DNA of 64,000 nucleotides from a virus (IMGVR_UViG_3300041411_000177:1-64000); one strand, 5' to 3'; positions 28,223-53,882 are shown, counted from the stretch's first letter. Notes: generated by a model from the letters alone, not told the origin. Program-made: numbers and translations.

Positions 28223-28231
28223 TTAAATTAC
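28223..28231 (-). promoter_or_regulatory. putative late promoter GTAATTTAA
   Basis: About 28 nt upstream of the 28195 start; overlaps the upstream stop codon. Confidence 0.55.
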
Positions 28232-28660
28232 GAATTGTTTGAGTTCATCGTTCCAGAACTCTTTGAATGCGTCGTGAAGCACAAAGATAACTTTACCTTT
28301 GGTTTCTTCGCTACTGTCTTTCAAATGCGGCGTCATGAAACCATCGGTAATAAGATCACAACCCAGCGCCTTTCCGAGTTTGCCATCGAGGGCCAAATCG
28401 TAGTTGGTGATTGGATCGAGAATATTGGCCCAAGCAGCGGAACCGATAATCGTCGCCCATGCCGAATTGTGCAGCAGCATGTATTTGGATTTCGCCAAAA
28501 GCTGCATGGAAAGATTCAGATTGTTTTCGAGAATGTTTTCGTCCATGAAAACCCCATGCTCCACTGCCTCGGCAAGCCGATTGAAGTAGTAAGAAGTTTT
28601 CAGGGAGTCGCCATCTTTAATACGCTCCAAATTCGCTTCCAAAATATCTTTAACAGTCAT
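28223..28660 (-). CDS. 145-aa protein resembling a fragment of the major capsid protein
   Basis: Likely start ATG 28660 (MTVKDIL); WANILDPITNYDLALDGKLGKALGCDLITDGF resembles, from recall, the MCP segment of this phage group. Confidence 0.45.
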   Translation of the reverse strand: MTVKDILEANLERIKDGDSLKTSYYFNRLAEAVEHGVFMDENILENNLNLSMQLLAKSKYMLLHNSAWATIIGSAAWANILDPITNYDLALDGKLGKALGCDLITDGFMTPHLKDSSEETKGKVIFVLHDAFKEFWNDELKQFVI

Positions 28661-28679
28661 CTTTATGCCCCACGTCACG

Positions 28680-29897
28680 TTAAAAGAAATTGCGGAAGAA
28701 TCCGCCTGTCGATCCACGCCCCGGATACCCCGGTATGCGCGTAAGCGCTGTATTCGAAACCCCAAGGATACCGAACGCACGACTTGAATCAATGAAACCA
28801 CCGCCCACACTACCATCGCCGCCCAATGCACCGGCACGGCCCAGCAGTTTTTTCAGCGGTTTTACTTGGCTTTCGATTTGCGCATCAATACGGCCCAATG
28901 CACTTTCGATTGCCGGAGTTCGGTCAACGTTTAAGCTGACAGTTTGTCCACCGAAATCAAACGCCAAACTACCCTCGGCCAAGTTCTGCGAACCCAGCGC
29001 GTAAATACAGGAACAGGTCAACCATGCATCGAGCAAAGGCCCTTGCATGTTGGTGCCTGTGAAGTTTGTGATATTCGGTTGCAGCCCGTTAAAGAAACTC
29101 AATCCACGACTGAGATATTCCATGATATCGGATTGCGTATATTCCAGTTCAGGAATGATGTTCGCAACCCGCGCACGGTTGATATAGTCCTCAAGCTGTC
29201 GGCTAGCCGTCAGGATTTGCGGAGTAATCGCCCACACTTTGTAAGTCATGGTGGTTTTAGCGATCTTACGGGCTGGGGTGTGATCCACAAGCATCGTTAG
29301 AGGGAACATTTGCGGACTACCCACGATTGCAGGCATGTCGATAACGGTGCGTTGCTTCTGACGTTCGACTTTAATTGCTTTGTCTTCAACGTCCCAATCT
29401 GCAAAAACTGTTTTGTTGTTGTAGTACAAAGAAACAGTCAGCAAATCGCCTTCTTTTCCTTTCTTCGCGGTAATGCCAGCAGCCAAGTCCGCTTTCTTCG
29501 CGGCGACCGGTGGTTTGTACGCAACAGGCACACTCAATTGCATGCGCGTGTCACGTCCGCAAATAATCACTACGTCAGATTCACGCCCAATGCTCGCCGG
29601 TTCAACCGTGATTTTAGAACGTGCCTGATATTGCCCGGTATCGCTTTCGAATGTCCAGCGCGCAACCAGTTCAACCGATTCGCGCAGGTTCATATTCGGG
29701 ATTGGTAGATCCGCGATCCAATGGCCGGGCATGCTTTGATACGGCTTTGCATAAACCTCTGCAATTACCGATTTGTCTACGTCGAATAATCGAACGAGCG
29801 GTGCCGGAGTATTTTCCGTGGGAATTACCGGATCGTCAAAGTCATCGAAAAACTCTTCGGTGATTGTGCAGGTTGAGCCTTCGTGAACGGTACTCAT
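28680..29897 (-). CDS. putative head-tail adaptor/neck protein
   Basis: 405 aa; C-terminal helical domain with FDFGGQTVSLNVDR; structural-gene context. Confidence 0.5.
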   Translation of the reverse strand: MSTVHEGSTCTITEEFFDDFDDPVIPTENTPAPLVRLFDVDKSVIAEVYAKPYQSMPGHWIADLPIPNMNLRESVELVARWTFESDTGQYQARSKITVEPASIGRESDVVIICGRDTRMQLSVPVAYKPPVAAKKADLAAGITAKKGKEGDLLTVSLYYNNKTVFADWDVEDKAIKVERQKQRTVIDMPAIVGSPQMFPLTMLVDHTPARKIAKTTMTYKVWAITPQILTASRQLEDYINRARVANIIPELEYTQSDIMEYLSRGLSFFNGLQPNITNFTGTNMQGPLLDAWLTCSCIYALGSQNLAEGSLAFDFGGQTVSLNVDRTPAIESALGRIDAQIESQVKPLKKLLGRAGALGGDGSVGGGFIDSSRAFGILGVSNTALTRIPGYPGRGSTGGFFRNFF

Positions 29898-30799
29898 TCC
29901 ACAACCCCTTGAGACAGTTTTACAACCAGCGTCTCAATATCTTGCAATGCGGATTCTTCCAAAGGCAGCAGCGCGGCTAGGCCAGCTTCCTCGGGTTCGA
30001 TTTGGTTTTGCACATAACGCAGAATGAATTCGCGGATTTGATCCTGCGCTTCACCTTCGTACTGTGCGTAATACTTACTGCGTCGGCGCATTGGCAAATT
30101 CGGTGCAATAAAGCGGACGTAATATTCGATGAATTTCGGCGTCCATTCTACGTGCAGCAAATCTGGCATTCGCTTCCAGAAATCCAGAACGTATTTCCAA
30201 TCCTCCATCGCCGTATAAAACATGGCGCGAGGAATATTCTGGTACAGGAGTTTTCCAGCAGTTGATTCAACACCACCCGTGTAACCGTTCATTTGCCGGA
30301 TAATCGCTTTCGTGTATCCGCCTGCAATGTCGTACAAAAACCGTTGATCACGTTCCATCATTTGCTGCATGCGCGCACGTGTCAGAATATGCAACGGTAT
30401 CGAAATGCTAATGAAATCTGCGGACTGATTATCAGCGGTTCCCCAAATGGCGGTGTAGCCACGCATCCACGTCGAATGCTTGACGGTTTTCACGTCAGCA
30501 TTATTCCGTAGCGTCCGGGCGAACGTGAACACTAGGCCAGTGCGCCGGACTTCCTGCGGGGGATAATCGACAAGCCCCACGCTCATGTTGTTGTACATCG
30601 ACCAGATGTTCACCAACGTAAACGAGGTTTTAAAGATGAACGCCATCGGCGTTTTCTTCAGTGATTCTTCGACATAATCGAGAACCATTTTAATGTCGAT
30701 CAAATAACGGTCGGTGTTGTAGGTGGTGATGTAGTTATCGCCGCCACGGGGCCAAGCCGAAAGACGAAAATCTAACGGCTTGGAAATGAAGTAGTGCAA
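29894..30799 (-). CDS. hypothetical (probably structural) protein
   Basis: 301-aa ORF in a late-motif operon. Confidence 0.55.
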   Translation of the reverse strand: MHYFISKPLDFRLSAWPRGGDNYITTYNTDRYLIDIKMVLDYVEESLKKTPMAFIFKTSFTLVNIWSMYNNMSVGLVDYPPQEVRRTGLVFTFARTLRNNADVKTVKHSTWMRGYTAIWGTADNQSADFISISIPLHILTRARMQQMMERDQRFLYDIAGGYTKAIIRQMNGYTGGVESTAGKLLYQNIPRAMFYTAMEDWKYVLDFWKRMPDLLHVEWTPKFIEYYVRFIAPNLPMRRRSKYYAQYEGEAQDQIREFILRYVQNQIEPEEAGLAALLPLEESALQDIETLVVKLSQGVVE

Positions 30800-31936
30800 T
30801 TACTTCAGCGTCAGGCTGTAGGAATGCACGTTCTGATCAATGCTACGCAGCGACCGAACGTAACCCTTTTTCAACAGCGCTTTAATCCCAGGAATGCTGT
30901 CGAAGATTCGGATAACCTGCGCCTGAATCTCACGATCATTGTCAGGGAATTCCAGAATAACTTCGTTGCCTTCCACGGTAACGCCGGACACACCTTCGAT
31001 TGCGGAAAGGCGTGTGGTGACTTCGGTCGCATCGAGGTCGAGGTCTGCTTTTGCAGCAAACATCACAACGTCATGGCGAGCGATTTCACGGTCGATATCT
31101 TTCGCGAAGTTCTTCGCAATTGCCGCCGTGTTTTCGCCTTTGATTTCGGTGCCGAGGTTGTACAGATACGGCAGCGCCACGCGATCCAGAATGTTCACGT
31201 AGGTGCGAATGGCGAATGCGCTTTCGGTTGGTTCGAGTCGTGCAGTAATCACGACGACCAGCGCTTTGTGGAAACCTTCGCTGAAATTGCGCCAGTGCGT
31301 TACGTCGCAGTTCAGTACGAAATCAATCGAGCCATCTTTCGAACCGATGTTGAGGTAGTAGGCAAGTTCGTCTTCCGCTTCGTCACCTTCAGCACGATTT
31401 TCAACGTGGGTTTTTTCCACACCGTCGAAATACTTCTGAATGCGTTTGAACAGGTCGCCCACTTCGTCAGGAATTGCGCTGTCGGACATTTCGGACATTG
31501 CGTGCAGCGCTTCGGCGTAGACTTCAGCCAGCGCGTTACGGTTTTTGATCATGTCTTTTACAAGCGCTTTCATGCCTGCGTTTTCGGTGGCACTGCACTT
31601 GTCGATAATGGCATCGAGTTCGTCAATGGAACCGCGCATTTCCAACGCATCGAGGTTCTTTTGCAGCTGGCGCGGGCCGGGCACCTTGACCTTTTGAACA
31701 GTCAGGCCGAAGCCAGTAGAACCTGCGCCTTTGCCGCCATCAGAACCGCCGCGCACTTCACGGACTTTAACCGATGATGCCGTGGCGACGTTCGAGCGAA
31801 AAGCCTTGCCGAAGAAAATACGCAACAGGCTGGTGAATTTCGACAGCAGACGGCGGTAGGAACTTTTCCGTTTGTTGTAGTATTTCGCAGCCTGTTCCGG
31901 CGTCATACGCTGGATGAAACTCAGGTCTTGGTTCAT
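30800..31936 (-). CDS. putative virion structural protein
   Basis: 378 aa in a late operon; N-terminal VATAS motif. Confidence 0.55.
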   Translation of the reverse strand: MNQDLSFIQRMTPEQAAKYYNKRKSSYRRLLSKFTSLLRIFFGKAFRSNVATASSVKVREVRGGSDGGKGAGSTGFGLTVQKVKVPGPRQLQKNLDALEMRGSIDELDAIIDKCSATENAGMKALVKDMIKNRNALAEVYAEALHAMSEMSDSAIPDEVGDLFKRIQKYFDGVEKTHVENRAEGDEAEDELAYYLNIGSKDGSIDFVLNCDVTHWRNFSEGFHKALVVVITARLEPTESAFAIRTYVNILDRVALPYLYNLGTEIKGENTAAIAKNFAKDIDREIARHDVVMFAAKADLDLDATEVTTRLSAIEGVSGVTVEGNEVILEFPDNDREIQAQVIRIFDSIPGIKALLKKGYVRSLRSIDQNVHSYSLTLK

Positions 31937-32935
31937 TTAGGATTCCATGATTGTGTTGAGTTTGTCTTTTTCTGTTTTGCCGACGTTCAGCAATTTCGTC
32001 AGCTTGTTCAGGGATCGCACATCGTAGATTTTCCGCTTACCTACGATAAAGGAAATCATGAAATTGTTTCCGTACTGCGACACGCGGTGGATGATATCAG
32101 TATTCGGCAAATCAACCGCACGCTTGAGGTACGGTAGAACCTGCGTCAGAAACTTATTGATATCTTCCGGCTTCACAAATGGTTTCAACACGACGTTTAA
32201 GCGGTCGTCGGTTACATCAACGCTTTTCACCAGTTTGGAAGCGAGCAATTTATCGTCTTTCGGCACCGGTTTGTCGATGTATTCGAAATCAGAAAGATTG
32301 CCCTTGATAAACGTCTGCACATCCTTTGCCGAATCAACGGCGGTTTCTTCGGACAATACAAACGGGGTATCTGGAATAGCGATACGGTACTGGCCGCCGT
32401 ACATTGTGAGCTTGACGGTGATAGGGCCAGAAACAAAACCGTTTTTATCCTGCACGCCATTGTCTGTCCGGAAACAAATCATTTGATAGCCCGGCAAACG
32501 AATATGCAGCTGCGTGGTGTGGCTGATCTTTGAAAGGAAACTATAAACAATTTCCGATAGGTAATTCAGATGCTTGTCCATTCGCGGGGAACAAACACTA
32601 TCAATCAAATCCATCAGTGTTTTCTGGAAGGCGCGAATGGTCTGTTGTTGCACGGCAATCATGTGGAAACAGCGATCACGTTTCGAATCGCTGAACTCTT
32701 GCGCAACCGAACGCGCACAACGGAGTTCCACTAATGAATCGACGCAGAATGTCAGAGCTTCCACACCATCGGATACTTTGAGGAATGACAGCTTCTTTTG
32801 GTTAAATTTCGAAACCAAAACGCTGGTAGCCGTGTTGATCCGGGTTAATACCGTTACGACTTCGTTAGCGTTTCGGGCATTTTTCAAATCAATGATATTT
32901 GGGTTATCATCAATGTATTTTGATTGTATTTGCAA
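31937..32935 (-). CDS. putative virion structural protein
   Basis: 332 aa; first gene after the ATAATTTAA motif. Confidence 0.55.
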   Translation of the reverse strand: MQIQSKYIDDNPNIIDLKNARNANEVVTVLTRINTATSVLVSKFNQKKLSFLKVSDGVEALTFCVDSLVELRCARSVAQEFSDSKRDRCFHMIAVQQQTIRAFQKTLMDLIDSVCSPRMDKHLNYLSEIVYSFLSKISHTTQLHIRLPGYQMICFRTDNGVQDKNGFVSGPITVKLTMYGGQYRIAIPDTPFVLSEETAVDSAKDVQTFIKGNLSDFEYIDKPVPKDDKLLASKLVKSVDVTDDRLNVVLKPFVKPEDINKFLTQVLPYLKRAVDLPNTDIIHRVSQYGNNFMISFIVGKRKIYDVRSLNKLTKLLNVGKTEKDKLNTIMES

Positions 32936-32966
32936 TGCACGTACACCCGAATGTGTGGATATACAA

Positions 32967-32975
32967 TTAAATTAT
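32967..32975 (-). promoter_or_regulatory. putative late promoter ATAATTTAA
   Basis: About 32 nt upstream of the 32935 start. Confidence 0.55.
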
Positions 32976-32986
32976 GGTCTAGATAG

Positions 32987-33028: not shown

Positions 33029-33053
33029 TTTGAATCAAACTACGAATCGCTTA

Positions 33054-34454
33054 TTAGGCGAAACGAGCTTTTGGTACTGCGCCACCGGTTTTCTTGGCCG
33101 GTTTAGCAGCGGCGGCTTTGGCGCTAGGCGCTTTAGCTGCTGGTTTTTTCGCGGCTGCTTTAGCTGCTGGTTTTTTGGCAGCCGGTTTAGCGGCGGCTTT
33201 CTTTTCAGCGGCTTTTGCAGGTGCGGCTTCAGCTTTTGCCTTTGCAGGGCGACCGCGTTTCTTCGGTGCTACTGCTGGTGCAGCTTCGGCTTTCGCTTTA
33301 GCTGGACGACCACGTTTTTTCGGAGCATCAGCGGCTGGTGCGGCTGGTGCTTCTTTTTTCGCGGCGGCTTTTTTGCTTGGAGCTTTCTTCGCCGGAGCGG
33401 CTTCAGCTTTCGGCTTGTTTTTCACGCCAGCCGGACGACCGCGTTTTTTCGCTGGTGCTGCTTCAGCGGCTGCTTCTTTTGCTTTGGCAGGACGACCGCG
33501 CTTTTTCGGAGCGGTTGCAGCCGGTGCAGCTTCAGCAGGTTTTGCTTTTGCAGGACGACCGCGTTTCTTCGGAGCAGTGGCCGGGGCAGCTTCAGCGGCA
33601 GCAGGTTTTGCTTTAGCTGGACGACCACGTTTTTTCGGTGCAGGTGCTTCAGCGGCTGCTTCTTTCACCTTGGCCGGACGACCACGTTTCTTTGGAGCGG
33701 CAGCAGGGGCAGCGGCAGGCGCGGCAGCAGCTGGTGCTTTAGGTGCCTTTTTGGAAACACCACCGGCTGCTTTTTTGGCTGCTGGTTTTGCATTACCGAA
33801 ATGCTTGGCTGCGATGCGTGCAACACCTTCTTTTGCCGCTTTCGCGCCGATATCAACCAGACGTTTGCCTTGGGTGCTGATCGGTTTGGCTTTGAAGTTG
33901 CTGATCAGGGACTTCAGGGAGAATTTACCCTTTGGTTTGATTTTCGCCATGGCCTTTTTGTGGTTGGCAGCAGCTTTGGTACGCTCACCGGCGAGGTTCT
34001 TACGCTCGTTGGCGTAGCGGCTTTTTTCTGCTTGACGCATCGCGGCGCGTTTGGCTGGCGGCACTTTTGCAGAACGAATCTTGCTCAGTGCTTTCTGGTG
34101 CGATGCTTGCAGACCCAGCGATTTTTTCCGGATTTGTTCACGGATTTGACGCTGTGCAGCAGTCACTTCGCGCTTCTGACCAGCAGCGTGCGAACCGGCT
34201 TGGCGATGCTTGCGGCGTTTTTTCCACGCCATTACCACTTTCTTCGCTTCGGCTTCAGTTGCACCGTGGCGCATGGCCTTGGTGAAAATCTGGCGAGCGT
34301 GGAACTTCAGCTTTTCAGCCGGAGTCATGGTTTTGTAACGCTGCTTAGCAGCCTTGTTCAGCTTGTGTTTGTTCTTCCGGCGATAGACCTTGCTTTCTTT
34401 CCGAGCTTTCAAAGCCTCGGGGCCTTTCGCCTTCTGGACGGTTTTCATGACCAT
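33054..34454 (-). CDS. histone H1-like, AT-hook repeat DNA-binding protein
   Basis: 466 aa, extremely K/A/P/R-rich; seven (P/A)KKRGRPA repeats; AAKKPAAK tail. Confidence 0.8.
   Translation of the reverse strand: MVMKTVQKAKGPEALKARKESKVYRRKNKHKLNKAAKQRYKTMTPAEKLKFHARQIFTKAMRHGATEAEAKKVVMAWKKRRKHRQAGSHAAGQKREVTAAQRQIREQIRKKSLGLQASHQKALSKIRSAKVPPAKRAAMRQAEKSRYANERKNLAGERTKAAANHKKAMAKIKPKGKFSLKSLISNFKAKPISTQGKRLVDIGAKAAKEGVARIAAKHFGNAKPAAKKAAGGVSKKAPKAPAAAAPAAAPAAAPKKRGRPAKVKEAAAEAPAPKKRGRPAKAKPAAAEAAPATAPKKRGRPAKAKPAEAAPAATAPKKRGRPAKAKEAAAEAAPAKKRGRPAGVKNKPKAEAAPAKKAPSKKAAAKKEAPAAPAADAPKKRGRPAKAKAEAAPAVAPKKRGRPAKAKAEAAPAKAAEKKAAAKPAAKKPAAKAAAKKPAAKAPSAKAAAAKPAKKTGGAVPKARFA
33240..33700 (-). repeat. 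coding tandem repeat: seven KKRGRPA units with Ala/Pro/Glu spacers
   Basis: Degenerate GGACGACC(A/G)CG(T/C)TT repeats visible on the plus strand. Confidence 0.85.
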
Positions 34455-35616: not shown

Positions 35617-35625
35617 GGGTTATTC

Positions 35626-35931
35626 CTATTTACGTTTCCACGACAGGTCTAATTCGTATCCGAGTTTGGCAGCAATCCCGATTAACACATCGAGGTCAGC
35701 CTCTGCCAATTTATCGCATTCATCTTCGGGAACAGAGTCGTGAAAATATGGAGTGAGTTCGCGATTTAATGGGCCGCCCATACGCAGGTACTGGCCTTGC
35801 ACAAACAATTTGATTCGTGCGCGTTTTTTGTGGTGCGGAATGCCCTTGAGCATGGGCCGTGCCTGCCGCTCTAATTCGTTGAGAATAATAGCGCACAGTT
35901 CGCGTCTCATCTTATTTACAGTATGGTGCAT
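35626..35931 (-). CDS. hypothetical protein
   Basis: 101-aa ORF; alternative start 35910. Confidence 0.55.
   Translation of the reverse strand: MHHTVNKMRRELCAIILNELERQARPMLKGIPHHKKRARIKLFVQGQYLRMGGPLNRELTPYFHDSVPEDECDKLAEADLDVLIGIAAKLGYELDLSWKRK
35913..35921 (-). promoter_or_regulatory. CTGTAAATA promoter motif
   Basis: Exact motif upstream of the sbcD-like transcription unit. Confidence 0.5.
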
Positions 35932-35937: not shown

Positions 35938-36327
35938 TTAATCCAGTTTGACCGTGAATTGAATACGCCGGGCGGGCATGCTGTACAATTCCAATTCCGT
36001 ATACAGCACACCGATTTCACGGCGACCGATTTTGTGAGCCTTACGGCGACCGCTGATAATCTTGTCGAAAATGCGATTGCCTGTCGCATCGTTGAGGCGC
36101 ACAACACATTGATTTTTAATATCGTGAATCGTATAGGACGCAACCTGTGCAGTGTGGTGATCATACACGCCGCGACTCGATTTGATTTCGTCGAGATATT
36201 TATCAAGGCGCATACCCAAATCCTCACTGGTCAGCTTGGAATTCAGATTGTGGCCCACAAGTTCGGTCAGTTGTTCCTGAATGTGTTTCAGCAGATGGTG
36301 GGCATTGATATTGTCGAGGGGAGTCAT
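35938..36327 (-). CDS. stand-alone tail-sheath C-terminal-domain paralog
   Basis: NINAHHLL..I / LDKYLDEIKSSRGVYD / PARRIQFTV align with sheath NVNVRRLV..I / VDAEAASVKRGRGLYE / PASRASLTA; start ATG 36327 is coupled to the LysM gene. Confidence 0.65.
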   Translation of the reverse strand: MTPLDNINAHHLLKHIQEQLTELVGHNLNSKLTSEDLGMRLDKYLDEIKSSRGVYDHHTAQVASYTIHDIKNQCVVRLNDATGNRIFDKIISGRRKAHKIGRREIGVLYTELELYSMPARRIQFTVKLD

Positions 36328-36641
36328 GAGCGCTCCTTGTGGCGCAGACGCAGGCAAGAACCGAAGTAAATGATTTTCGGATCGGCAATGTTGTTGATGA
36401 ACGCCAGCCGGTCAACTTCCACACCGAAACGCGGCGCAATTTCTGCTAGCGTGTCGTTGGTTTTGATGTGGTAAATATTGAAGTCGTCACCGAGCTTGCG
36501 TTCGTACTGGATATCGTCGAAGCATTCTTGCGGCGGGGTATACACGCAGCGCTTACGGAACATGTGGTGATCCAGCGGGTTCAGCTGTTCAGCCAGCATT
36601 TCGATTAGTTCTTCGCGATCCATTTCAACAACTGCATTCAT
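36324..36641 (-). CDS. LysM domain protein
   Basis: YHIKTNDTLAEIAPRFGVEVDRLAFINNIADPKIIYFGSCLRL. Confidence 0.88.
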   Translation of the reverse strand: MNAVVEMDREELIEMLAEQLNPLDHHMFRKRCVYTPPQECFDDIQYERKLGDDFNIYHIKTNDTLAEIAPRFGVEVDRLAFINNIADPKIIYFGSCLRLRHKERS

Positions 36642-36991
36642 TCCGAAACCTCTGCGATTTTATGAACGTCTTCCCAATCCACACACGGGGGATTTTCCGG
36701 ATCGAATTCGTACAGGCCTTCGTGTCCTTCGATGCTGGAAATGGTGATCGTGCGATTACCGCCGCGACTGCCGGCTTCCCAAACTTCGCAAAAGAAAAAC
36801 GTAGTCAAAACGTCTTCCAAAGTCGGGAAGCGATCTTTGATTTCTTCCCAGCTTTCACCTTCGATCATTTCCGTGACAAATACCCACGCTGAATCCTCAT
36901 CCGCGCGCAGTACGCAATGGATTGGCTCAGAGCCACGGATTCGCACTTCCTCGAACGACAGTTTCAGTTTCAGTGTTTCGTGCATTGGCAT
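36638..36991 (-). CDS. hypothetical protein
   Basis: 117-aa ORF with coupled overlap. Confidence 0.6.
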   Translation of the reverse strand: MPMHETLKLKLSFEEVRIRGSEPIHCVLRADEDSAWVFVTEMIEGESWEEIKDRFPTLEDVLTTFFFCEVWEAGSRGGNRTITISSIEGHEGLYEFDPENPPCVDWEDVHKIAEVSE

Positions 36992-37223
36992 TTGGTTTTT
37001 CTCGTTTGATTAATTCCATTCCCTTTTCAGTAATCCAGCCACTGTCAAGGCTTACACCGCATTCGATCAGTCCGTGATCGTAAGCACGTTCCATCGCACG
37101 CCAACAAACCTTTTCGGGTTCGCCTGTCGTTTGCTTCAGAAAAGCTAGCGGACGTATTCCTAATTCCCGTCCCCAATTATAGGCATCTACTACCATACGA
37201 TCGGTCACGTCTTTGCGGGCCAT
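36927..37223 (-). CDS. small winged-helix-like protein
   Basis: Likely start ATG 37223; RAMERAYDHGLIECG...WITEKG pattern. Confidence 0.5.
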   Translation of the reverse strand: MARKDVTDRMVVDAYNWGRELGIRPLAFLKQTTGEPEKVCWRAMERAYDHGLIECGVSLDSGWITEKGMELIKREKPNANARNTETETVVRGSANPWL

Positions 37224-37224
37224 T

Positions 37225-37566
37225 TTATTCCCCGGTATTTGGTTTCCAAAGTTTCGCATATTTCAAAACATTCGGTACGTTGTCGCTGTAAACGGGCATC
37301 ACCACAAGGCAAGAAGGTTCCCCGTTACAGATTGTGTTTTCGTGGCCTTGGTGGCAGGCCAGAGTCCCACGGATTTTGTCGAACTCACGACGATTCACGC
37401 GCAGGGTTACTTTGCGGAAAGAGTTGTGCAGCCAGTCGTGATAAATGCCGTTCGTTTCAAACTTTTGATGCGCAGTCAGGATGGAATGCGCGACCAGTGT
37501 AGGCACCATGTAATCAGGTGCTTCGTCGAGAACGGCGATGTACATTTTGCTGTAGAGGTCGATCAT
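37225..37566 (-). CDS. peptidyl-tRNA hydrolase type 2 (Pth2)-like protein
   Basis: KMYIAV...VAHS...WL...FRKVTLRV...CLVVMP...LKYAKLW follows the Pth2 secondary-structure pattern. Confidence 0.6.
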   Translation of the reverse strand: MIDLYSKMYIAVLDEAPDYMVPTLVAHSILTAHQKFETNGIYHDWLHNSFRKVTLRVNRREFDKIRGTLACHQGHENTICNGEPSCLVVMPVYSDNVPNVLKYAKLWKPNTGE

Positions 37567-37961
37567 TTTTCCATCACTTCCATCATCAGGCGATCAACGC
37601 TCAGGCCGATACGCTTACACATACCGGTCAACTGGTCGCGGCTCAGGCGATCAATGCGGCCCTGCAAAATATCGTCGAGGCGATTATTGGTAATGTTCAG
37701 GTGTTGGCAAATCGTTTCCGGATTTTGACCGAGACGTTTGATTTCACGACCGAGGGCGCGAAGCAGGTACGAACGAATACGCATGGCGAGTGATTCTTCC
37801 GGGTTGTCGCAAATCGCATCCCACACACTTTCGAAACATTGGCGGCGGGTTTCTTCGGCCACGGGCGACACTACAATATCCAGCGCCAGATTGTTTTCTT
37901 CGACCATTTGCGGAGGGTTATTCGTTTCGTCGCAAATGGTAATCCATTCGTGCCTTTTCAT
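37563..37961 (-). CDS. XRE/HigA-like helix-turn-helix protein
   Basis: ETICQHLNITNNRLDDILQGRIDRLSRDQLTGMCKRIG. Confidence 0.7.
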   Translation of the reverse strand: MKRHEWITICDETNNPPQMVEENNLALDIVVSPVAEETRRQCFESVWDAICDNPEESLAMRIRSYLLRALGREIKRLGQNPETICQHLNITNNRLDDILQGRIDRLSRDQLTGMCKRIGLSVDRLMMEVMEK

Positions 37962-38449
37962 TTTCTATTTGGCCGGTAGTAGTGGTGTTCAGGAATGCAG
38001 TGCTGCTTCATTGCAACACGTGCGGCGCGAGCGCTTCGGTATTTGTATAGGTGATGCACGTTTGCTACGCCGCGCTCAAATACATACACCTCAACGCCGC
38101 GCTTCGTGTGCTTGGGAATGAAATAGTATTTGGTTTGCAGCATGGGTTCGCGGAATGCATCGGTGTGAATTTCAATATCCCACATCGTGCCGATTTGCCC
38201 AGTCAGGACGGGTTTCATATCGACTGGTTGTTTCTCGATCTTTTCTTCCACGCCGTCCGTAACTTTCACACAATCACGTTGAGGCAAATCAAATGCGTAG
38301 GAAGCTGGAAAAGTCCACAGCGTCCACCGGCCAGCTTTTGGCAAATGCCCACCAAACGGACACGGCTCAACCGGTTTATGTGGTGTGGAAACCGAAAGGA
38401 TCTTGTCGGAAAGATCGAGCATTTTCCAACCTTTCGTGTCGATTGTCAT
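37958..38449 (-). CDS. hypothetical protein
   Basis: 163-aa ORF with coupled overlaps. Confidence 0.6.
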   Translation of the reverse strand: MTIDTKGWKMLDLSDKILSVSTPHKPVEPCPFGGHLPKAGRWTLWTFPASYAFDLPQRDCVKVTDGVEEKIEKQPVDMKPVLTGQIGTMWDIEIHTDAFREPMLQTKYYFIPKHTKRGVEVYVFERGVANVHHLYKYRSARAARVAMKQHCIPEHHYYRPNRK

Positions 38450-39852: not shown

Positions 39853-40121
39853 TTCGTTTCTTCCTGTGCAGGTTGAGTTTCATCGAGTGCGTCTTTGTGA
39901 TTTTCTTCGATCAGTTGCAGTACGCGTGCCTTTTCTACTTCGATAGCTTCTGCCATCTGACGGATAATGTCAGGCAGCATCTGCGTCGTGTATTCTTGCT
40001 TCGGCAAATCCACTTCACAACGGACGCCGATACCGTGAACCATTTGCAGCGCTTGAATCCACCAGTGTGTCGGATGCGGTATACACATCCAATGCGCTTG
40101 GGTATTTCGTTGGTCGATCAT
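39849..40121 (-). CDS. hypothetical protein
   Basis: 90-aa ORF. Confidence 0.6.
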   Translation of the reverse strand: MIDQRNTQAHWMCIPHPTHWWIQALQMVHGIGVRCEVDLPKQEYTTQMLPDIIRQMAEAIEVEKARVLQLIEENHKDALDETQPAQEETK

Positions 40122-40441
40122 TTCACATCCCCAAGTTTAGCCCCGCGCAAAACGAGGCCGTAGGTAAGGTCGGAAAGGTTTTGAATATCGAGGGCGAACA
40201 GTACGGACACTTCAGCCACGCCAACCCACCGCACACCCAGCACGCAAGGAAACGTGCGGGGCATGTCTTGAGGATTCCGAATATTCGGCTGCGAATTGTA
40301 GTGGTCGAGTGCGTTGTCGTCTTCGTCGATATAAATCCTGTTCAGAAATTCTTCGACTTCGCGTTGATCGGAAACGATACAGGCCATGACGTTTTCAGGA
40401 AGCATCGTAGCGAACATTCGAAACTCCTTTGTATTTCTCAA
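40118..40441 (-). CDS. hypothetical protein
   Basis: 107-aa ORF. Confidence 0.55.
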   Translation of the reverse strand: MRNTKEFRMFATMLPENVMACIVSDQREVEEFLNRIYIDEDDNALDHYNSQPNIRNPQDMPRTFPCVLGVRWVGVAEVSVLFALDIQNLSDLTYGLVLRGAKLGDVK

Positions 40442-42701
40442 CCGTCACGTAGGAACATTCCGGGTGCATGTGCTTGCCTTTCTGCGTGATGATAAACACG
40501 TTGGGCACCAGCTTGCGCAGGAATGGCACGTAGCGTTCCACGAACAGGCTTGTGGTGGCCGCGTCCATGTGTGCATCGGGTTCGTCGAGGATTGCCAGAT
40601 TAACCCGGCGATCATCTTTCGCCATGATCACACACGCAAGGAAATGCAGCAGACGGAAACTATCAGATTCGGCACCGGACAATTCGCGCACGTCACTGAC
40701 GTTGCCTTGGCCCCGGTCAACGATGATATGCACGCCGTCTTCTTTGGCTTCCACTTTGAACTTGAAATTCTCTGCGAAAATCAGTTGTGCATATTTGTTG
40801 TAGTTCTGTTCGAGGCCGTACACAATTTCGTGCATGGCGTGCAGCTTCAGCCCTTTGTTGCTGTAGGCTTTCACCAGAACTTTGAAGCGTTTCAGTTTCT
40901 TGATCAGAGGTTTGTATTCCTCGACCTTGAGACTGGCTTCTTCGCGCTGCTTCGACAGCAGTTTCCATTCGGCCCGCAACGAGCTATAACGCACGGTTAT
41001 TTTATGCGCTTTGGAATACTTTTTCTCGACCTTAGCCAACTTAGTTTCTACTGCGGCCAGACGCTTGAGAATGTTGTCGTCTTCCGGCACTTCTTCGAAC
41101 TCGGCCAGTCGCGCTTTCAGGCGGCGGGCTTCGTCGATCATTTCAACCTGCTGTTCGATTTTCTCAACCGAGATAATCGGTTCCTGCTTCGGACGCTTCG
41201 GCTTTTTCAGTTCCTGCATTTGCCCGGTGATTTCGTCGAAGCGCACAGAGTTTTCCATCTGGTCTTCGAGTTTTTCCAGCTCCGCACGCAGCGCTTTGAT
41301 TTTCTTGCGCGCAGCGTAGAACGAGCGTTCATCAAACTTCAGATGCTTGATGATTTCCGTGTTTTCCTGCTTCGTGATTCGCAGTTCCAACGCATGGATC
41401 ATCGAGTGTGCTTTGCCTTTGCGCTTCTTGGCTTGGGCAATGGTTTTTTCCAAATCTTTGAGGTTGATTTTCTGCATACACGTCGGGCAATTGCCGTCGT
41501 CATGATCGTGCAGCAGGTCAGCCAACTTCATTGTCGTTTTTGCCGTGGTGTACTCTTCTTTGAGAGCTTCCATCGGATCGACTTTTTCTTTGTTGCACTG
41601 CGTCAGGAATTTACGCAGGTCAGGGTCAACATGGTCGTCCAAGTTTTCCAGTTCACGAACAGCCGCGTCGTGCTTGTCCCGAACTTTCTCAAGGCGTTTG
41701 TCTTCCGCTTCGAGTCCGTCCAGTTCTTTCCGGATTTCCTTGATACGTTTCTTCAGTGTTTTGCTGTCGCCACCGTCGCCCAATTCGTCGAGCTTTTTCA
41801 CCAGCTTTTTACAGCGGCGATCATACTCGGCATTATCCTCTTCGAATTTCTCCATCGCTTCGTGTAGCTGGTATTGCTCTTTCAGCGTTGGTTTATCAAA
41901 ACGGATTTTGCTTTGTAGTTTCTTCAGCTTGTCGTTGGTGGTCGTGTAGAACTCAACCTGCTTCGACAGGCTTTTCAGTTCCTGCCGCTGCGACTGCAAT
42001 TTCGTCACTTTCTTGGATTGGGTTTTGACGATTTCTTTCGCTTCGTCAAGTTCCTTTTCCAGCTTCTTGCTCCAGCCGTTTTTATTCAGGCCGTCGTTGA
42101 TGTTCATCAGCTGGTGGCTGAACGCATCGGATTTGTTCTGTGCGACTTTTACTTCGTCGATTTTCTTTTCGAAGAACCGACGCAGCACGTCGAACTGATC
42201 GAGACGCCACACCTCACTGATATACGTCATCCGTGCGCGTGGCGTGCCGTACAGGAATTCCAGTTTCTTTTGCGATTGCAAATGAACATAGGAATACCAT
42301 TCGTCTTGCGTAATCGGAATGATTTGCTCAATTTGCGCACGCTGATTAGCTTGACCCCGAACTTTCAGGTCTTCCCCATCGCGCCAGATTTGATAGCCAC
42401 CGGCTTGCTGGCGGATCGTCCACTTGTGCCCGAGGTTGTTAACGTCGAACTCGATAAACGATCCTTTGGAATGGATGCGGTTTTTCTTGCGGGTATCTGC
42501 CAACGGCGTCTGTTCAAAACGCACGTTAGGCAGCATAGAAAACAGCAGGGATTTACCGGCACCGTTGTTTTGGTCTTTGGAGATTTGCGAGTCGCGGTTA
42601 TGCCCGCTAACCGTGGTCAGTCCACAGTTGTTAGTGAAATCAAATTCACCCTTTTTGTACGAAACGATACCGCCAAAACGGCTACCGGTAATCTCGATCA
42701 T
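40395..42701 (-). CDS. sbcC: SbcC/Rad50/gp46-like SMC ATPase
   Basis: NGAGKS Walker A, central CPTC zinc hook within coiled coils, LSGAE signature, ILDEPDAH Walker B. Confidence 0.92.
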   Translation of the reverse strand: MIEITGSRFGGIVSYKKGEFDFTNNCGLTTVSGHNRDSQISKDQNNGAGKSLLFSMLPNVRFEQTPLADTRKKNRIHSKGSFIEFDVNNLGHKWTIRQQAGGYQIWRDGEDLKVRGQANQRAQIEQIIPITQDEWYSYVHLQSQKKLEFLYGTPRARMTYISEVWRLDQFDVLRRFFEKKIDEVKVAQNKSDAFSHQLMNINDGLNKNGWSKKLEKELDEAKEIVKTQSKKVTKLQSQRQELKSLSKQVEFYTTTNDKLKKLQSKIRFDKPTLKEQYQLHEAMEKFEEDNAEYDRRCKKLVKKLDELGDGGDSKTLKKRIKEIRKELDGLEAEDKRLEKVRDKHDAAVRELENLDDHVDPDLRKFLTQCNKEKVDPMEALKEEYTTAKTTMKLADLLHDHDDGNCPTCMQKINLKDLEKTIAQAKKRKGKAHSMIHALELRITKQENTEIIKHLKFDERSFYAARKKIKALRAELEKLEDQMENSVRFDEITGQMQELKKPKRPKQEPIISVEKIEQQVEMIDEARRLKARLAEFEEVPEDDNILKRLAAVETKLAKVEKKYSKAHKITVRYSSLRAEWKLLSKQREEASLKVEEYKPLIKKLKRFKVLVKAYSNKGLKLHAMHEIVYGLEQNYNKYAQLIFAENFKFKVEAKEDGVHIIVDRGQGNVSDVRELSGAESDSFRLLHFLACVIMAKDDRRVNLAILDEPDAHMDAATTSLFVERYVPFLRKLVPNVFIITQKGKHMHPECSYVTVEKYKGVSNVRYDAS

Positions 42702-46027: not shown

Positions 46028-46036
46028 TATTTACAG
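46028..46036 (-). promoter_or_regulatory. CTGTAAATA promoter motif
   Basis: About 32 nt upstream of the dnaX-like start. Confidence 0.6.
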
Positions 46037-46285
46037 TATCGTGGGCCGACGTGCTACATAGGTGCTAACGGCTTTCCGTGCTTCGTGTTCCGATGCCCCC
46101 GCATCAATTGCACGACGGAAAATCTCACGTTCCATTTTACGCTGACGCCGACTCTTCTTTTTCTTGGCTTTCTTCGTCTGCGTTGGCTTCGGCAAAGGCC
46201 GGTAGATAACCAACGTAAACACGCAGAACAAAACTACAGCGGCCACCGGCTGGAAAAGAATTTCAAACCATTGGTAGGCCGTCAT
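46031..46285 (-). CDS. small membrane-anchored basic protein
   Basis: N-terminal hydrophobic helix followed by a K/R-rich tail. Confidence 0.55.
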   Translation of the reverse strand: MTAYQWFEILFQPVAAVVLFCVFTLVIYRPLPKPTQTKKAKKKKSRRQRKMEREIFRRAIDAGASEHEARKAVSTYVARRPTIL

Positions 46286-46536: not shown

Positions 46537-46546
46537 TTATACAACC

Positions 46547-49956: not shown

Positions 49957-49959
49957 TTT

Positions 49960-50586
49960 TTACATACCTTGAATTTTGTTTTGCAGTAGAAGAACCATCG
50001 CGTATCCATGGGCCGCTACGTGCTGGCCGGAATCGCAGGTTCCACGATACGCGTTACTGATTACCACCACAGGGTCAAAGTCGAGCGGCAATTCTGCTGC
50101 TTCACAAATTCCCAAAAGTTTTTCGATTAATTCTGGCATTACCGTAATCGGCATGGGCCGCATCGGCGTTTGCAGCCGAAGTGTTGGGTCTTTCAAACTG
50201 ATACGACCGCGCACGTCCGAGAATTGAACGTAAACGCGATCATTGGCAACCAGCACCCGGACTTTTTTCCAGATATCGCTGGTGTCGCCGCTGATCATTA
50301 CGGACTCGACGAAGTTATCGAAATTATTCCGCACGTAATTAATCAGCGTACTTTCGGTGTTTACCCGTTCCAGTTCTGCCACAAGTTCGGCACTGCATTT
50401 CGATTTGGTGCCACTTGGACGCCAGTATCCCAAACCGTTTGGAATCGTGTACGGGCGCTTTTCTTTAAAGCCGACGGCGGTGCCATTTTCGAAATAGTAG
50501 AGACTGTTATCGTGAAGGCAGAACCCATCGGCAATAGCGCGGCACGAATTTACAAACGGTCTATCAAAGATACTGACCTCAAGCAT
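49960..50586 (-). CDS. hypothetical protein
   Basis: 208-aa ORF. Confidence 0.6.
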   Translation of the reverse strand: MLEVSIFDRPFVNSCRAIADGFCLHDNSLYYFENGTAVGFKEKRPYTIPNGLGYWRPSGTKSKCSAELVAELERVNTESTLINYVRNNFDNFVESVMISGDTSDIWKKVRVLVANDRVYVQFSDVRGRISLKDPTLRLQTPMRPMPITVMPELIEKLLGICEAAELPLDFDPVVVISNAYRGTCDSGQHVAAHGYAMVLLLQNKIQGM

Positions 50587-50606
50587 ATGTTGTTCCTAGA
50601 AATGGT

Positions 50607-51602
50607 TTACTTCTTATTAGATTTTACAGTATTTGCCCCGGTCGATTTGGCAGGATCTTTCTTTAAAGCGGGTTTCCGTGTTTTCTTTTCGGGCGTGTAA
50701 TAGAACGCAGTCAGCACGGCTGCGATTTCAGCACCAACCTTTTTGGTTGTGCATTTCTCGGCCAGCCCGTTGATCATCACAGAATCCAACGCAGGCCGTA
50801 CAGCGGCTTCCCGGTGACGCATTTGCATTACGCCCACTTCGATATAATGCAAAAGTTCAGGTACGCCATTGCGCTGGTGAAATTGAATATCACCGGGCGT
50901 GCAGGGGTTTTGGTAAACGATTTGGCGAGCCAGTTGCAGAGCTTCAACCGCTGCCAACACCACAGCCTGCGAACGCTCGGCCTTATTGAACAGGTCGAAT
51001 TTGTTATAGATTTTCAGCAGGTTTATTTTGGATTCAACCCGATCTTGTTCTGTGTAGGCCCGCATGTTTTTAGCATATTCCATTTTCATGCGGTTGGTAT
51101 TGCGCTGCATGACCGTGCCGTATTTAAGTGCCTTGAATTCGGTGCCACCACCGGCAATCGCTAGGCCGGAATCGCCTTTGGTATTATCGAGATAAAGCAG
51201 GATACCGAAATCATGTTTTGGCTCTTTGATTTTATGCTTAACCCACGTCCGGCTGTACCAGCGATCACCGTTCAACACGTACTCGGTGCCGTTGATGAAA
51301 GCCACTTGTGAATACAGGCCCCGCATAATATGGCGAATGGCGAGAAAATCCGGATACGATTTGATGGTGAATCGCTCAATGATTTCCTTTGCGATTTCAA
51401 AGCAGGGTTCAATATATTTATCGGGAATGTTCTTGGTGGTTTCTGGCAGCAGGTCATGCATTTTCCCTTTGCCGTCGGTGATCACCAGTAATTCCAGACA
51501 CTGCATAATGAGCATGGAATGCAGGCCCATTAATTGGACGGCATCGCACAGCCCGCGTCTCGAATCGGACAGGCCGAATTCGGGTAGGTAAACGGTAGGC
51601 AT
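50607..51602 (-). CDS. hypothetical protein with Lys-rich C-terminus
   Basis: 331-aa ORF with AAGGA RBS; first gene after the long non-coding region. Confidence 0.7.
   Translation of the reverse strand: MPTVYLPEFGLSDSRRGLCDAVQLMGLHSMLIMQCLELLVITDGKGKMHDLLPETTKNIPDKYIEPCFEIAKEIIERFTIKSYPDFLAIRHIMRGLYSQVAFINGTEYVLNGDRWYSRTWVKHKIKEPKHDFGILLYLDNTKGDSGLAIAGGGTEFKALKYGTVMQRNTNRMKMEYAKNMRAYTEQDRVESKINLLKIYNKFDLFNKAERSQAVVLAAVEALQLARQIVYQNPCTPGDIQFHQRNGVPELLHYIEVGVMQMRHREAAVRPALDSVMINGLAEKCTTKKVGAEIAAVLTAFYYTPEKKTRKPALKKDPAKSTGANTVKSNKK
50621..50639 (-). promoter_or_regulatory. variant promoter GGGGCAAATACTGTAAAAT
   Basis: Resembles the extended motif at 18050 and 61771; about 35 nt upstream of the 50586 start. 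Confidence 0.45.
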
Positions 51603-52069
51603 TGGTATTCCTTTTAATCGAATGTTTCGGTTGGGTGGCCGGGCGGCTGGCCGGTGGGAAGGGGGGCTGCGGAATGGGGGATGGGCGCCTTCGGCGCAGT
51701 TATGGTTCCCATAACGAGCATTAGACCGAAGGCCTATTGTATTGTCGCAAGATCAATACAACGCAGGCAGAACTATCCTTAAAAGTTCAATCATTCATGC
51801 AACGCTTCCTGCTCTGCTTTCGCTCGGGATGCTGGGTGAGGGGATTTGCCGGACGCTTTCTCATTCCGGGGAACCTTCGGTTCCCGCTCCTCACGCTTCG
51901 CGTTCGTCGCTATCGTTCGCTTCGCTCCCTGTTTGTCTTTCTCGCACGTTCAGTGCGATGCGACGTTCTGGTACTCAAGCAATTCCTTTCTCAGGCTCAC
52001 TCTGTTCGCAATCGTTCCAAACGATAAATCGTTCTGTCTCTCAATTATTCCGCAACCACACTCATCCAC
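51603..52069. other. non-coding hairpin-rich region (candidate replication origin or structured RNA)
   Basis: No credible ORF; at least eight inverted repeats, five with GAA triloops on the minus strand; G-run cluster 51656-51685. Confidence 0.5.
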
Positions 52070-52087
52070 CATTTACAGTTTTGGGGT
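52070..52087 (-). promoter_or_regulatory. promoter motif ACCCCAAAACTGTAAATG
   Basis: Matches the CAAAACTGTAAAT core; points into the non-coding region. Confidence 0.55.
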
Positions 52088-52168
52088 TGGTGATTTTTTG
52101 ATCAATTCCCTGTACCCATTGGGCCAAACGCCGGGATACCATTCGAATCATTTGAATAAAAAGGCAAT

Positions 52169-52197
52169 AAAAAAGGGGAACCTTTCGGCTCCCCTTT
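52169..52197 (-). terminator. intrinsic terminator
   Basis: AAAGGGGA...TCCCCTTT stem; T tract on the minus strand. Confidence 0.75.
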
Positions 52198-52215
52198 GGG
52201 TGTAAATACGGCTAT

Positions 52216-53073
52216 TTAGAGGCTGGATGCGGTCAATTTGTCGTAAAGTTCAAGGATGTTTGCGTTGAAATCAAACCCTTTCAAACCATGCAAACAAACT
52301 TTGCAATCAGGCCAATCATGTTCGGCACAATTGGTGGGCATTGCCATCATGCGCGGTGGAAGTGGGCACGGGTCAGCGCCCATTAGCAGACGTTCGCAAA
52401 CCAGCTTTACAACCTTGACCATTTGTTCGCCGGTCAGCATGTAGTTTTCACCGGTTTGACCAGTGCTGATTTGCACCGTTGCTTGTGGTTCTTCAACCAC
52501 ACCACAATCGACCACTGGGTTTGCAATGGGAGTTTCACACGGTTGAGCCAGCAATTCTGGTGGCGGTGGATTTGGAATAACTTGTTGGAATGTGCCATTT
52601 TCTGGCACGCCTTCCATCATGGTATTTCCATTAACAGAAATGCGAATTTTCCGTGGGCCGTAAGTCTGAATGCAAACCGATGTACCACCGTCACGCTGAA
52701 ATGTGGTCACGTCTGCATAAGTCGGTTCCATGTTGGCGGGTGTGGATTCCGCTTCACCCGTGCCGTGCATGGCGTTCCACTCGCTACGGGTAATGTCGCC
52801 CATGGATGCAGTCGCCATGTGCATTTCGTTTGGAATAAAATCCGGGGCCGCTCGTTTCTTTTCCAGCGTGGCCGCCAGTTCGGGTTTCATCTGCTGCCAC
52901 AAATTGCTGAATTCACGCGAGTTATGATTCTCGATGCAGTCCGCCAATTTATCCGCCGACGCTTTGGAAAACAGCGGCATGATCATTCGCAGCATCAGGC
53001 TACGCTTTTGCTTCAGCGTCTGCGCGTTGCGTGCCATCGTGATCATGTTGGAAGCAATGGTTAATTCTTTCAT
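52216..53073 (-). CDS. hypothetical protein
   Basis: Likely start ATG 53073 (coupled); MATAS motif; C-terminal CxxC. Confidence 0.6.
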   Translation of the reverse strand: MKELTIASNMITMARNAQTLKQKRSLMLRMIMPLFSKASADKLADCIENHNSREFSNLWQQMKPELAATLEKKRAAPDFIPNEMHMATASMGDITRSEWNAMHGTGEAESTPANMEPTYADVTTFQRDGGTSVCIQTYGPRKIRISVNGNTMMEGVPENGTFQQVIPNPPPPELLAQPCETPIANPVVDCGVVEEPQATVQISTGQTGENYMLTGEQMVKVVKLVCERLLMGADPCPLPPRMMAMPTNCAEHDWPDCKVCLHGLKGFDFNANILELYDKLTASSL

Positions 53074-53882
53074 TTGTCCTCCCACACAATAGGGCCGTGC
53101 AAGCCTTCATAAGTCCGGGTCGAATTCTCCAACGCAGTTTTCAAATCCGGGTGCAGTTCTTCACGGGTAACGCCCGACAAACGAATAGAGCGAACCGACC
53201 GCCCACGAACCGAATACGCAGATTCTTTCACGTTGTTAATCCACAGCGTGCGGCCATCATGGCCTTCCGGGCCTTCGTTGAAATCAGCAGCACGCACAAC
53301 CACATCGAACCAATTTGGTTCTGCATCTTTGGCCGTCTTTTTCTGTTTCACGGTACGCACCACAACAATTTCGTTTTCGTCAGTGTGCAGCACCTTTTCG
53401 ACCGTGGAATCAATCCATTTGTTGGTCACGACGACGGCACCAACAGGATCTTTGTTTGCATCCATGAACATGTCGAGAATTGCCTGCATGTCTTCGATGG
53501 TTGGCGTCCAGTTATTGGAACCTGCTTTGACATGCAGAATGCGTTTCAGCGTGTTCAGCGTGTAACCGTCTTCGAAAACGTCTTGAGGGCTGAACGATTC
53601 GTGGCCGTTGGAATAGCGTACAAAATAACCGCCAGTGTGAACCGCGTTGCGTTCCATGTAATCGTCGCCAACCACCGCAACGAATTCGCCAGTCTTATCG
53701 ACCAAAACATATTCGGTTTTGCATGCGGTCGGCATCGATTCCATCGTTCCACCTTCGCGGGGAATCATCATGTATTGCTGGGCCGGAATCGTGTCGCTGT
53801 GTGTGCCTTCCTGCTGCGCGGTGATGTGCGCGATTTGAAACGCTTCGACTTGTTTGTGGCAATTGTAGATTGGGAAATTCAT
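53070..53882 (-). CDS. mosaic protein: GYFVRY..G.ESFSP..VFE.GY domain plus a portal-like segment
   Basis: 270 aa; first domain is a common phage module; RILHVKAG...DPVGAVVVT resembles, from recall, a portal segment of this phage group. Confidence 0.45.
   Translation of the reverse strand: MNFPIYNCHKQVEAFQIAHITAQQEGTHSDTIPAQQYMMIPREGGTMESMPTACKTEYVLVDKTGEFVAVVGDDYMERNAVHTGGYFVRYSNGHESFSPQDVFEDGYTLNTLKRILHVKAGSNNWTPTIEDMQAILDMFMDANKDPVGAVVVTNKWIDSTVEKVLHTDENEIVVVRTVKQKKTAKDAEPNWFDVVVRAADFNEGPEGHDGRTLWINNVKESAYSVRGRSVRSIRLSGVTREELHPDLKTALENSTRTYEGLHGPIVWEDK

Follow-up and report, generated by a model that had tools for sequence, protein, structure and literature searches.

The DNA analysed here, IMGVR_UViG_3300041411_000177:1-64000 (64,000 nucleotides; "the window" means the whole of it), comes from a jumbo Pseudomonas phage of the Lu11/HRDY3 type, and we found that at least five small accessory proteins in it carry pieces of the group's own major capsid protein (MCP), portal and tail sheath. 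Their genes are scattered in variable slots amid replication, repair and lysis genes, and they are almost certainly real, selected fragment paralogues of virion proteins. A preliminary description had named three small genes with capsid, portal and sheath fragments away from the structural modules; hhalign and reciprocal profile matches bore this out, and two more such genes were found. The five genes, together with the in-window parent type of the sheath patches, are as follows (HTH, helix-turn-helix).

28223–28660, minus strand: capsid-like gene, 145 aa, stand-alone paralogue of the putative A-domain of the MCP; core patch at residues 56–117 (28310–28495)
35938–36327, minus strand: sheath-like gene, 129 aa, diverged stand-alone Phage_sheath_1C-like domain; best-matching part at residues 3–58 (36154–36321)
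37563–37961, minus strand: sheath patch–HTH fusion, 132 aa; sheath motif at residues 4–39 (37845–37952) and HTH_37 at residues 56–123
37958–38449, minus strand: MCP-patch gene, 163 aa; 25-residue MCP patch at residues 81–105 (38135–38209), VLTGQIGTMWDIEIHTDAFREPMLQ
53070–53882, minus strand: portal-like gene, 270 aa, three modules; portal-derived patch at residues 112–158 (53409–53549)
4756–6396, minus strand: tail sheath paralogue, 546 aa; Pfam Phage_sheath_1 (E 1e-8) and Phage_sheath_1C (E 2e-4)

The window shares 75–78% nucleotide identity with HRDY3 (314 kb) and Lu11 (281 kb), and synteny with it reaches as far as PaBG. The complete Lu11 and HRDY3 records were used for the comparison of virion genes, and the parent MCP and portal are those of Lu11, HRDY3 and PaBG, which stand in for the window phage's own virion genes. 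Most genes from about 6.4 to 55.6 kb lie on the minus strand, in a block coding for helicase, DNA polymerase, an SNF2-type helicase, SbcCD, clamp loader, primase and lysis pieces. The three open reading frames (ORFs) described previously (28223–28660, 35938–36327 and 53070–53882) are all real and lie on this strand; the ATG overlaps the upstream stop in two of them, at 36327 and 53882, and the capsid-like ORF starts (28660) 19 nt after the upstream gene. The neighbours of the fragment genes are SbcCD, clamp loader, LysM and endolysin pieces, none of them structural.

The proposed identity of the capsid-like gene was upheld by several comparisons. The PHROG family 'major head protein' gave a short match to the ORF (E 2e-5), and tblastn with it recovered the genuine MCPs of two relatives, HRDY3 (53% identity over 53 aa) and PaBG (43% over 72 aa). 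We built a profile, A2, from six small homologues of the capsid-like protein, which matched the true MCP ORF of HRDY3, Lu11 and PaBG at E ~1e-18. When A2 was compared with the MCP alignment by hhalign, 60 columns were placed on MCP residues 245–304 of 368 (probability 99.3, E 2.5e-20), and reciprocally a profile of 24 diverse MCPs matched the capsid-like ORF at E 2.5e-17 among 4,688 ORFs. A joint MAFFT alignment was compatible with weaker flanking similarity ('KVIFVLHDAFKE' against 'EIYVVAAPEYH', and 'FWNDELKQFVI' against 'GWMLSEAFSFVL'); by this alignment the coverage would be MCP ~215–355 with a deletion of ~25 aa, the firm homology being MCP 245–304. For the second copy in Lu11 gp106, the local alignment ran over MCP 186–312 at 37% identity. 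MCP residues 1–214 have no counterpart in the 145-aa protein, so that it is not a full-length MCP of ~365 aa. Its patch keeps the parent's invariant residues (W, IGS, DPIT, LxG, TD.F and P). The MCP family is linked to phage G gp27 (PDB 6WKK; E 1.6e-7), and linear mapping onto gp27 suggests that the covered region corresponds approximately to the A-domain. The AlphaFold2 (AF2) model of the capsid-like protein, with a predicted local distance difference test (pLDDT) score of 40, was too poor to show the fold.

Among 1.84 billion representative proteins, the A2 profile matched 96 clusters, including about 41 full-length MCPs and about 39 proteins of 107–200 aa, about 10 of the latter being likely partial MCP gene calls. 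In a tree based on a 61-column core, which was poorly resolved, the window's capsid-like family formed a clade with 23 rows from about 21 clusters (50% identity), all of them small or tandem-copy proteins. The family is spread over dozens of uncultivated phage lineages. The single contig of a distant family member with enough length to judge carried non-structural genes of the thymidylate-synthase type, the other two contigs being shorter than 2 kb. Distant members (P0040, P0046, P0049 and P0051) and related proteins of 112–119 aa have up to four conserved cysteines (C.YFT,.C..S, GC and FC.P) that are not found in MCPs; these may form a metal site or a disulfide pair.

The slot between the conserved genes for 405-aa and 282-aa proteins (28661–28679; 11941–12001 in contig L001, 8878–9741 in L009 and 6957–7397 in L073) is a variable insertion site. 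The capsid-like gene occupies it in the window and in the related contigs L064 and L066, and a fused double copy does so in Lu11 (gp106, 287 aa); elsewhere it is empty in HRDY3 (a 60-bp gap) or holds the gene for a 146-aa endolysin in PaBG. The gene preceding the capsid-like gene is labelled 'head-tail connector', a label without Pfam support.

The portal-like gene had likewise been taken for a portal fragment. The portal match is real, but it covers only a 47-aa patch in an otherwise unrelated three-module protein that has no portal domain. The protein falls in phrog_11049 (unknown function; E 4e-38), and the PHROG 'portal' family phrog_16240 matched residues 113–157 only (45 aa, E 8e-11). 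The A1 profile matched a single ORF of 636–686 aa per genome in Lu11, HRDY3, PaBG, BcepSaruman and Rhizobium phage RHEph12 (E 3e-14 to 2e-9), and these ORFs are annotated or positionally evident portals: Lu11 gp191 is near TerL gp188, and the RHEph12 ORF directly follows TerL. Against the portals, hhalign aligned 47 columns with portal residues 286–333 of 660 (probability 98.2, E 4e-14). The patch keeps W.PT, DP.GA and T of the parent, and in the portal alignment it immediately precedes an 'ALGISEAFL' motif, after which comes a long stretch resembling a helix; this position would fit the stem/clip region. With 270 aa, of which only residues 112–158 match, the protein is not a portal subunit; such a subunit would comprise wing, stem, clip and crown in ~650 aa and be encoded near the large terminase. 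Lu11-type portals themselves matched no solved structure or Pfam family in a PDB profile search, in Pfam or by hhalign against T4-type gp20.

The remainder of the portal-like protein consists of a small β-barrel (residues 1–110) and an α/β domain (residues 190–270). An alignment of 20 homologues showed that the modules 1–110, ~110–175 and 190–270 are present or absent independently: 182-aa homologues lack the third module, P0024 and P0026 lack the middle (portal) module, BcepSaruman gp209 (154 aa) consists of two tandem portal patches without the barrel, and PaBG keeps only the N-terminal barrel without the patch. The AF2 model (pLDDT 76) was confident for modules 1 and 3 and low for the patch. 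Foldseek and VIA searches with this model returned generic small β-barrels for residues 1–110 and nothing portal-like, the best fold match of the barrel being phage L Dec (Z 6.5). The motif GGYFV.Y..G..SFSP is invariant in the barrel module (53553–53882, minus strand). Phages of Ralstonia, Escherichia, Salmonella and Burkholderia encode stand-alone forms of this module, ~85 aa long, and a 'PGDYG protein' is among its weak BFVD fold matches.

The homology of the sheath-like gene is the weakest of the three, yet it is reciprocal. With the single sequence, Pfam, PHROG, a PDB sequence search and the ESM Atlas gave nothing usable, and the PDB sequence searches of the capsid-like and portal-like proteins were equally unproductive. 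The preliminary description had relied on a sheath within the window; that sheath is present (4756–6396, minus strand), but BLAST alone misses its similarity to the sheath-like ORF, and tblastn of the ORF within the window found no paralogue. A profile of six members of the sheath-like family (A3) matched, at E ~2e-6, the C-terminal part of two sheaths, gp18 of Aeromonas phage 65 (residues 565–622 of 678) and that of P. putida phage Peetri, and both matches, from the unrelated T4-like and Peetri-like lineages, were in the same register relative to the C-terminus. Two of the six family members matched PF17482, at best with E 0.005, which is below the curated cut-off; the window protein did not match. 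On the phage group's own two sheath paralogues, the best hhalign placement of A3 was the homologous 'NVNVRRL...GLY' helix (E 0.01–0.05). Reciprocally, a profile of seven sheath C-termini matched the sheath-like ORF at E 1.2e-5 among 4,688 ORFs. These alignments suggest that the whole 1C domain may be represented in the sheath-like protein, with a basic insertion of ~25 aa; its structure model was poor.

We also considered a gp25-type sheath initiator for the 129-aa gene and rejected it, because Lu11, HRDY3 and PaBG each carry a separate GPW_gp25-type ORF. The 129-aa protein had no Pfam match to the gp25/TssE family (PF04965), and its gene is flanked by LysM and SbcD genes, with no baseplate genes. 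The C-terminal half of the A3 family aligned weakly with the N-terminal region, upstream of region 2, of a phage sigma factor, Lu11 gp174 (L031 3288–4298; hhalign E 2e-4, probability 45%; 'GRRKAHKIGRREIGVLYTEL' against 'DRYASQVGRCERGNLYVAL'), a similarity that may be due to chance.

The two additional genes are adjacent and stood outside the preliminary description. In the HTH fusion, the N-terminus ('HEWITICDETNNPPQMVEENNLALDIVVSP') copies residues 492–527 of the in-window sheath with 42% identity (BLASTP, E 1e-8); the sheath C-terminal profile matched this protein at E 1.2e-7, and Pfam HTH_37 at E 1e-9. The sheath patch on the fusion is kept in the relative L066 and missing from the HRDY3 orthologue. 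HRDY3 has the patch on a 182-aa ORF beside a patch-less HTH ORF of 96 aa, and in Lu11 gp115 the patch and the HTH domain are on one protein. Directly upstream of the fusion gene, the 163-aa protein was matched by the profile of 24 diverse MCPs at profile positions 279–303 (E 2.4e-5 among 4,688 ORFs), and VLTGQIGTMWDIEIHTDAFREPMLQ is the core of its MCP patch.

We then compared 102 large conserved proteins, as profiles, with all small ORFs. Clear fragment matches were derived from the MCP, the portal, both sheaths, a spike/peptidase (VgrG3-like_C) and tail proteins, and several of the parents are of unidentified function; the remaining matches were split genes or antisense shadow ORFs. No genuine fragment match from the identified replication enzymes was found among the 102 profiles. 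One further virion-fragment gene, outside the window, codes for a stand-alone 201-aa VgrG3-like_C protein, which shares 47% identity with the central part of the 843-aa tail spike/peptidase in the same genome. The fragment and spike/peptidase pairs are located as follows.

HRDY3: VgrG3-like_C fragment 260430–261035; spike/peptidase 237892–240423
Lu11: VgrG3-like_C fragment 12137–12745; spike/peptidase 26679–30185

The patches were 37–57% identical to their parents in protein, 48–62% in nucleotides and 31–47% at third codon positions. Because third positions match the parents at only 31–47%, the copies are old and have not been kept alike by gene conversion; they belong to ancient paralogous families and are not recent truncations of the phage's own genes, as the words "truncated copies" had implied. 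A role as silent cassettes or gene-conversion donors was rejected on the same grounds (nucleotide identity 48–62%, third positions near random). Against close metagenomic relatives, the ratio of non-synonymous to synonymous substitution rates (dN/dS) was 0.25 for the capsid-like, 0.27 for the sheath-like and 0.26 for the portal-like gene, and 0.14 for the HTH fusion. Neighbouring genes gave 0.075–0.17, most core neighbours being two- to threefold under the fragment genes. The fragment genes are therefore genuinely coding and have evolved faster than the core, and pseudogenes or debris were rejected on the dN/dS values (0.14–0.27) and the intact frames in several relatives.

HRDY3 has no capsid-like gene and PaBG has none of the three, and the fragment genes have been gained, lost, duplicated and recombined module by module among relatives. 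Because their presence varies independently, they do not make up one coordinated system, and the earlier term "system" overstated the case.

Nine copies of the promoter-like motif ACTGTAAAT lie in the window, where chance would give 0.29, and eight of them are on the coding minus strand (8219, 11334, 18051, 25974, 35914, 46029, 52071 and 59868; the plus-strand copy is at 61781). The copy beside the sheath-like gene is given below.

35914–35922, minus strand: promoter-motif core ACTGTAAAT, immediately 3' of the sheath-like gene; going upstream along this strand, one next meets the copy at 46029–46037

ACTGTAAAT is the core of the annotated 'putative middle/late promoter' of Lu11, AACTGTAAATAGATAG, at a syntenic spot. 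The sheath-like and HTH genes are positioned after the copy at 46029, downstream of the clamp-loader and SbcC genes, and the capsid-like gene after the copy at 35914, downstream of SbcD. Because Lu11 has this motif annotated next to its portal gene as well, the timing of the fragment genes relative to the virion genes cannot be read from it. Scans for sigma-70 promoters and terminators found no excess over shuffles.

In each fragment gene, the segment retained is the parent's best-conserved one, including its invariant residues, and the same short peptides recur in differing protein contexts. Because conserved parental peptides of 25–47 residues are kept and reused across contexts, including a DNA-binding protein, selection appears to act on the peptides themselves. 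The reading we tentatively favour is that the fragments act by mimicry of the parent's conserved surface: each would present this surface to its usual binder, in competition with the parent. Candidates for the binder are an assembly partner or chaperone of the phage, a host sensor, or the parent's own neighbours, and in the HTH fusion such mimicry would link surface binding to DNA binding. Within mimicry, a decoy for a host sensor is unlikely when taken by itself, and assembly control or feedback is no likelier. The fragment genes share a strategy while evolving separately and do not form an operon-like system, and their products are probably not virion components. We regard as doubtful the wider idea of a jumbo-phage 'self-mimic' toolkit, cut from capsid, portal and sheath, that titrates binders, blinding host pattern-recognition immunity, with HTH fusions as assembly-to-expression feedback. 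By analogy with the titration of FlgM/sigma-28 or of sigma-32/chaperone, such a fusion might report free partner or chaperone to transcription. Several points weigh against mimicry. The conserved residues could reflect fold stability alone, and the families may hold functions unrelated to the parent; the 112–119-aa relatives in the capsid family have their own cysteines (up to four) and a VIFVPR-type end. The poor models of the capsid-like and sheath-like proteins give no evidence of a parent-like fold, and the ACTGTAAAT motif precedes replication genes too, giving no timing relative to virion proteins. Fragments with a sensed fold might also activate host sensors instead of blocking them, and Avs activation by truncated targets has been quantified in a preprint (10.64898/2026.01.04.697583).

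Almost as plausible as mimicry is that ancient pieces of virion genes have been exapted in accessory ORFs as stable folding units, with functions unrelated to the parents' partners. The divergence is ancient and saturated, the capsid-like family is a deep, diverse clade with features of its own, the portal patch is just one module amid unrelated domains, and the jumbo genomes of the group hold other stand-alone copies (the VgrG3-like_C domain and N-terminal domains of tail proteins). However, patches of 25–47 residues are too short for independent folding, yet they are kept with their invariant residues and reused in three phages, and the parents of the fragments found in the survey were virion-type proteins or had no identified function, with no identified replication enzyme among them. 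A narrower proposal, which develops the preliminary description's idea of decoys for Avs/CapRel-type sensors, is that the fragments are made before or alongside the virion proteins and occupy capsid, portal and tail sensors without triggering them; it seems unlikely to us. It agrees with genes that are accessory, located in variable slots, fast-evolving and duplicated, and with the retention of conserved cores, since Avs-type sensors are reported to recognise conserved core folds of the MCP, the portal and several tail proteins (10.64898/2026.01.04.697583). The activation by truncated targets mentioned above speaks against it, as does the HTH fusion, which a pure decoy leaves unexplained; no defence or anti-defence genes were identified adjoining the fragment genes, and the literature searched on phage decoys and truncated capsid proteins gave no precedent for virion-derived fragment genes.

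We consider it very improbable that the proteins are weapons against co-infecting relatives or against host tailocins or type VI secretion systems, in which non-polymerising subunits would poison the assembly of foreign capsids, portals or sheaths. The fragments do keep interface-rich conserved segments without the rest of the subunit, and their distribution among relatives is patchy, but the parents are highly conserved in the group (the MCPs of HRDY3 and Lu11 are 86% identical), so that the phage's own assembly would suffer. Somewhat less remote, though still improbable, are ordinary assembly or virion components: a gp25-style initiator or terminator for the sheath-like protein, a decoration or capsomer-centre protein for the capsid-like one, and a vertex accessory for the portal-patch one. 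In favour of this, gp25/TssE-type proteins are small relatives of the sheath handshake domain, the sheath C-terminal profile places the true gp25-like ORFs in Lu11 and HRDY3 only slightly under the threshold, and the capsid-like gene follows the gene labelled 'head-tail connector'. Against this, the canonical GPW_gp25 gene is elsewhere and the 'connector' label lacks Pfam support; the fragment genes are absent from close relatives, are sited among SbcCD, clamp-loader and lysis genes, and have dN/dS values two- to threefold above most core neighbours. Neither of the grounds that would have refuted the decoy and dominant-negative ideas of the preliminary description arose: the capsid-like and portal-like matches persisted under scrutiny, and the genes are unlike stoichiometric virion components. 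A virion role for their products is unlikely.

These results also bear on annotation. Lu11 gp106, named 'major head protein' in PHROG/RefSeq, and HRDY3 XDJ15160 and BcepSaruman gp209, named 'portal protein', belong to the same small-protein families as the window genes. The labels come from a short shared patch; these mislabelled proteins of 154–287 aa cannot be the capsid or portal subunit, and the real MCP and portal are elsewhere in those genomes. Patches of ~50 aa drive such names in public records, which misleads both annotation and the mapping of triggers and targets. That three virion proteins have their best-conserved peptides reused in at least five selected genes, with a fusion to a DNA-binding domain in one of these genes, is hard to ascribe to chance. 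If mimicry were true, it would mean a novel kind of counter-defence aimed at structural-protein sensors, or a novel link between assembly and expression, and both readings are open to direct test in Lu11, which is grown on Pseudomonas putida.

Several other features of the window were noted. The endolysin is apparently split in the window lineage (36324–37566, minus strand): ORF 37225–37566 resembles residues 3–115 of the 211-aa endolysins of HRDY3 and Lu11, and the LysM ORF 36324–36641 resembles their C-terminal residues 146–211, with two unrelated small ORFs between the halves and an identical layout in L066. ORFs 40445–40615 (56 aa) and 40118–40441 (107 aa), both on the minus strand, jointly match a single 164-aa ORF of HRDY3/Lu11, and the split may stem from a frameshift, from a stop codon or from an error in sequencing. 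A 466-aa protein with AT-hook repeats (Pfam AT_hook, E 6e-9) is encoded at 33054–34454 on the minus strand, and a brief stretch of the orthologue in HRDY3 is repeated in another ORF there, of 82 aa (69% identity over 26 aa). At 1769–4750 (minus strand), the 214-aa ORF 4106–4750 is paralogous (28% identity, E 7e-16) to the first 180 residues of the tail protein encoded next to it, which has 775 aa and also bears an Ig-like domain.

Among known systems, the gp25/TssE (GPW_gp25) proteins resemble the sheath-like protein in being ~130 aa long, related to the sheath and encoded apart from the sheath gene. They differ in that the 129-aa protein matches sheath C-terminal profiles and not GPW_gp25, and its gene sits with lysis and repair genes. 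In HigA2-type antitoxins, a C-terminal HTH_37 domain is combined with a short N-terminal segment that binds the partner. The 37563–37961 protein has the same arrangement, but its N-terminal segment is a copy of a sheath motif, and no toxin gene was identified adjoining it. T4 gp24, a paralogue of gp23, was likewise born by duplication of a virion gene within a phage lineage, as were the two sheath proteins of the Lu11/PaBG group (PMC7412058). Those full-length structural paralogues are built into the particle, whereas here only a domain or a patch of 25–50 aa is retained, outside the structural modules.

Phages are also known to counter defence by mimicry or by occupying a defence protein, as with the Ocr-type DNA mimics and with DSAD1, which blocks DSR2. 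The ICP1 antitoxin mimic is another case of anti-defence by mimicry (PMC13728456). Like these proteins, the fragment proteins are small, accessory and variable among relatives, and could occupy a binding site. In contrast, none of the mimicry anti-defence proteins was found to derive from a sensed structural protein of the phage itself.

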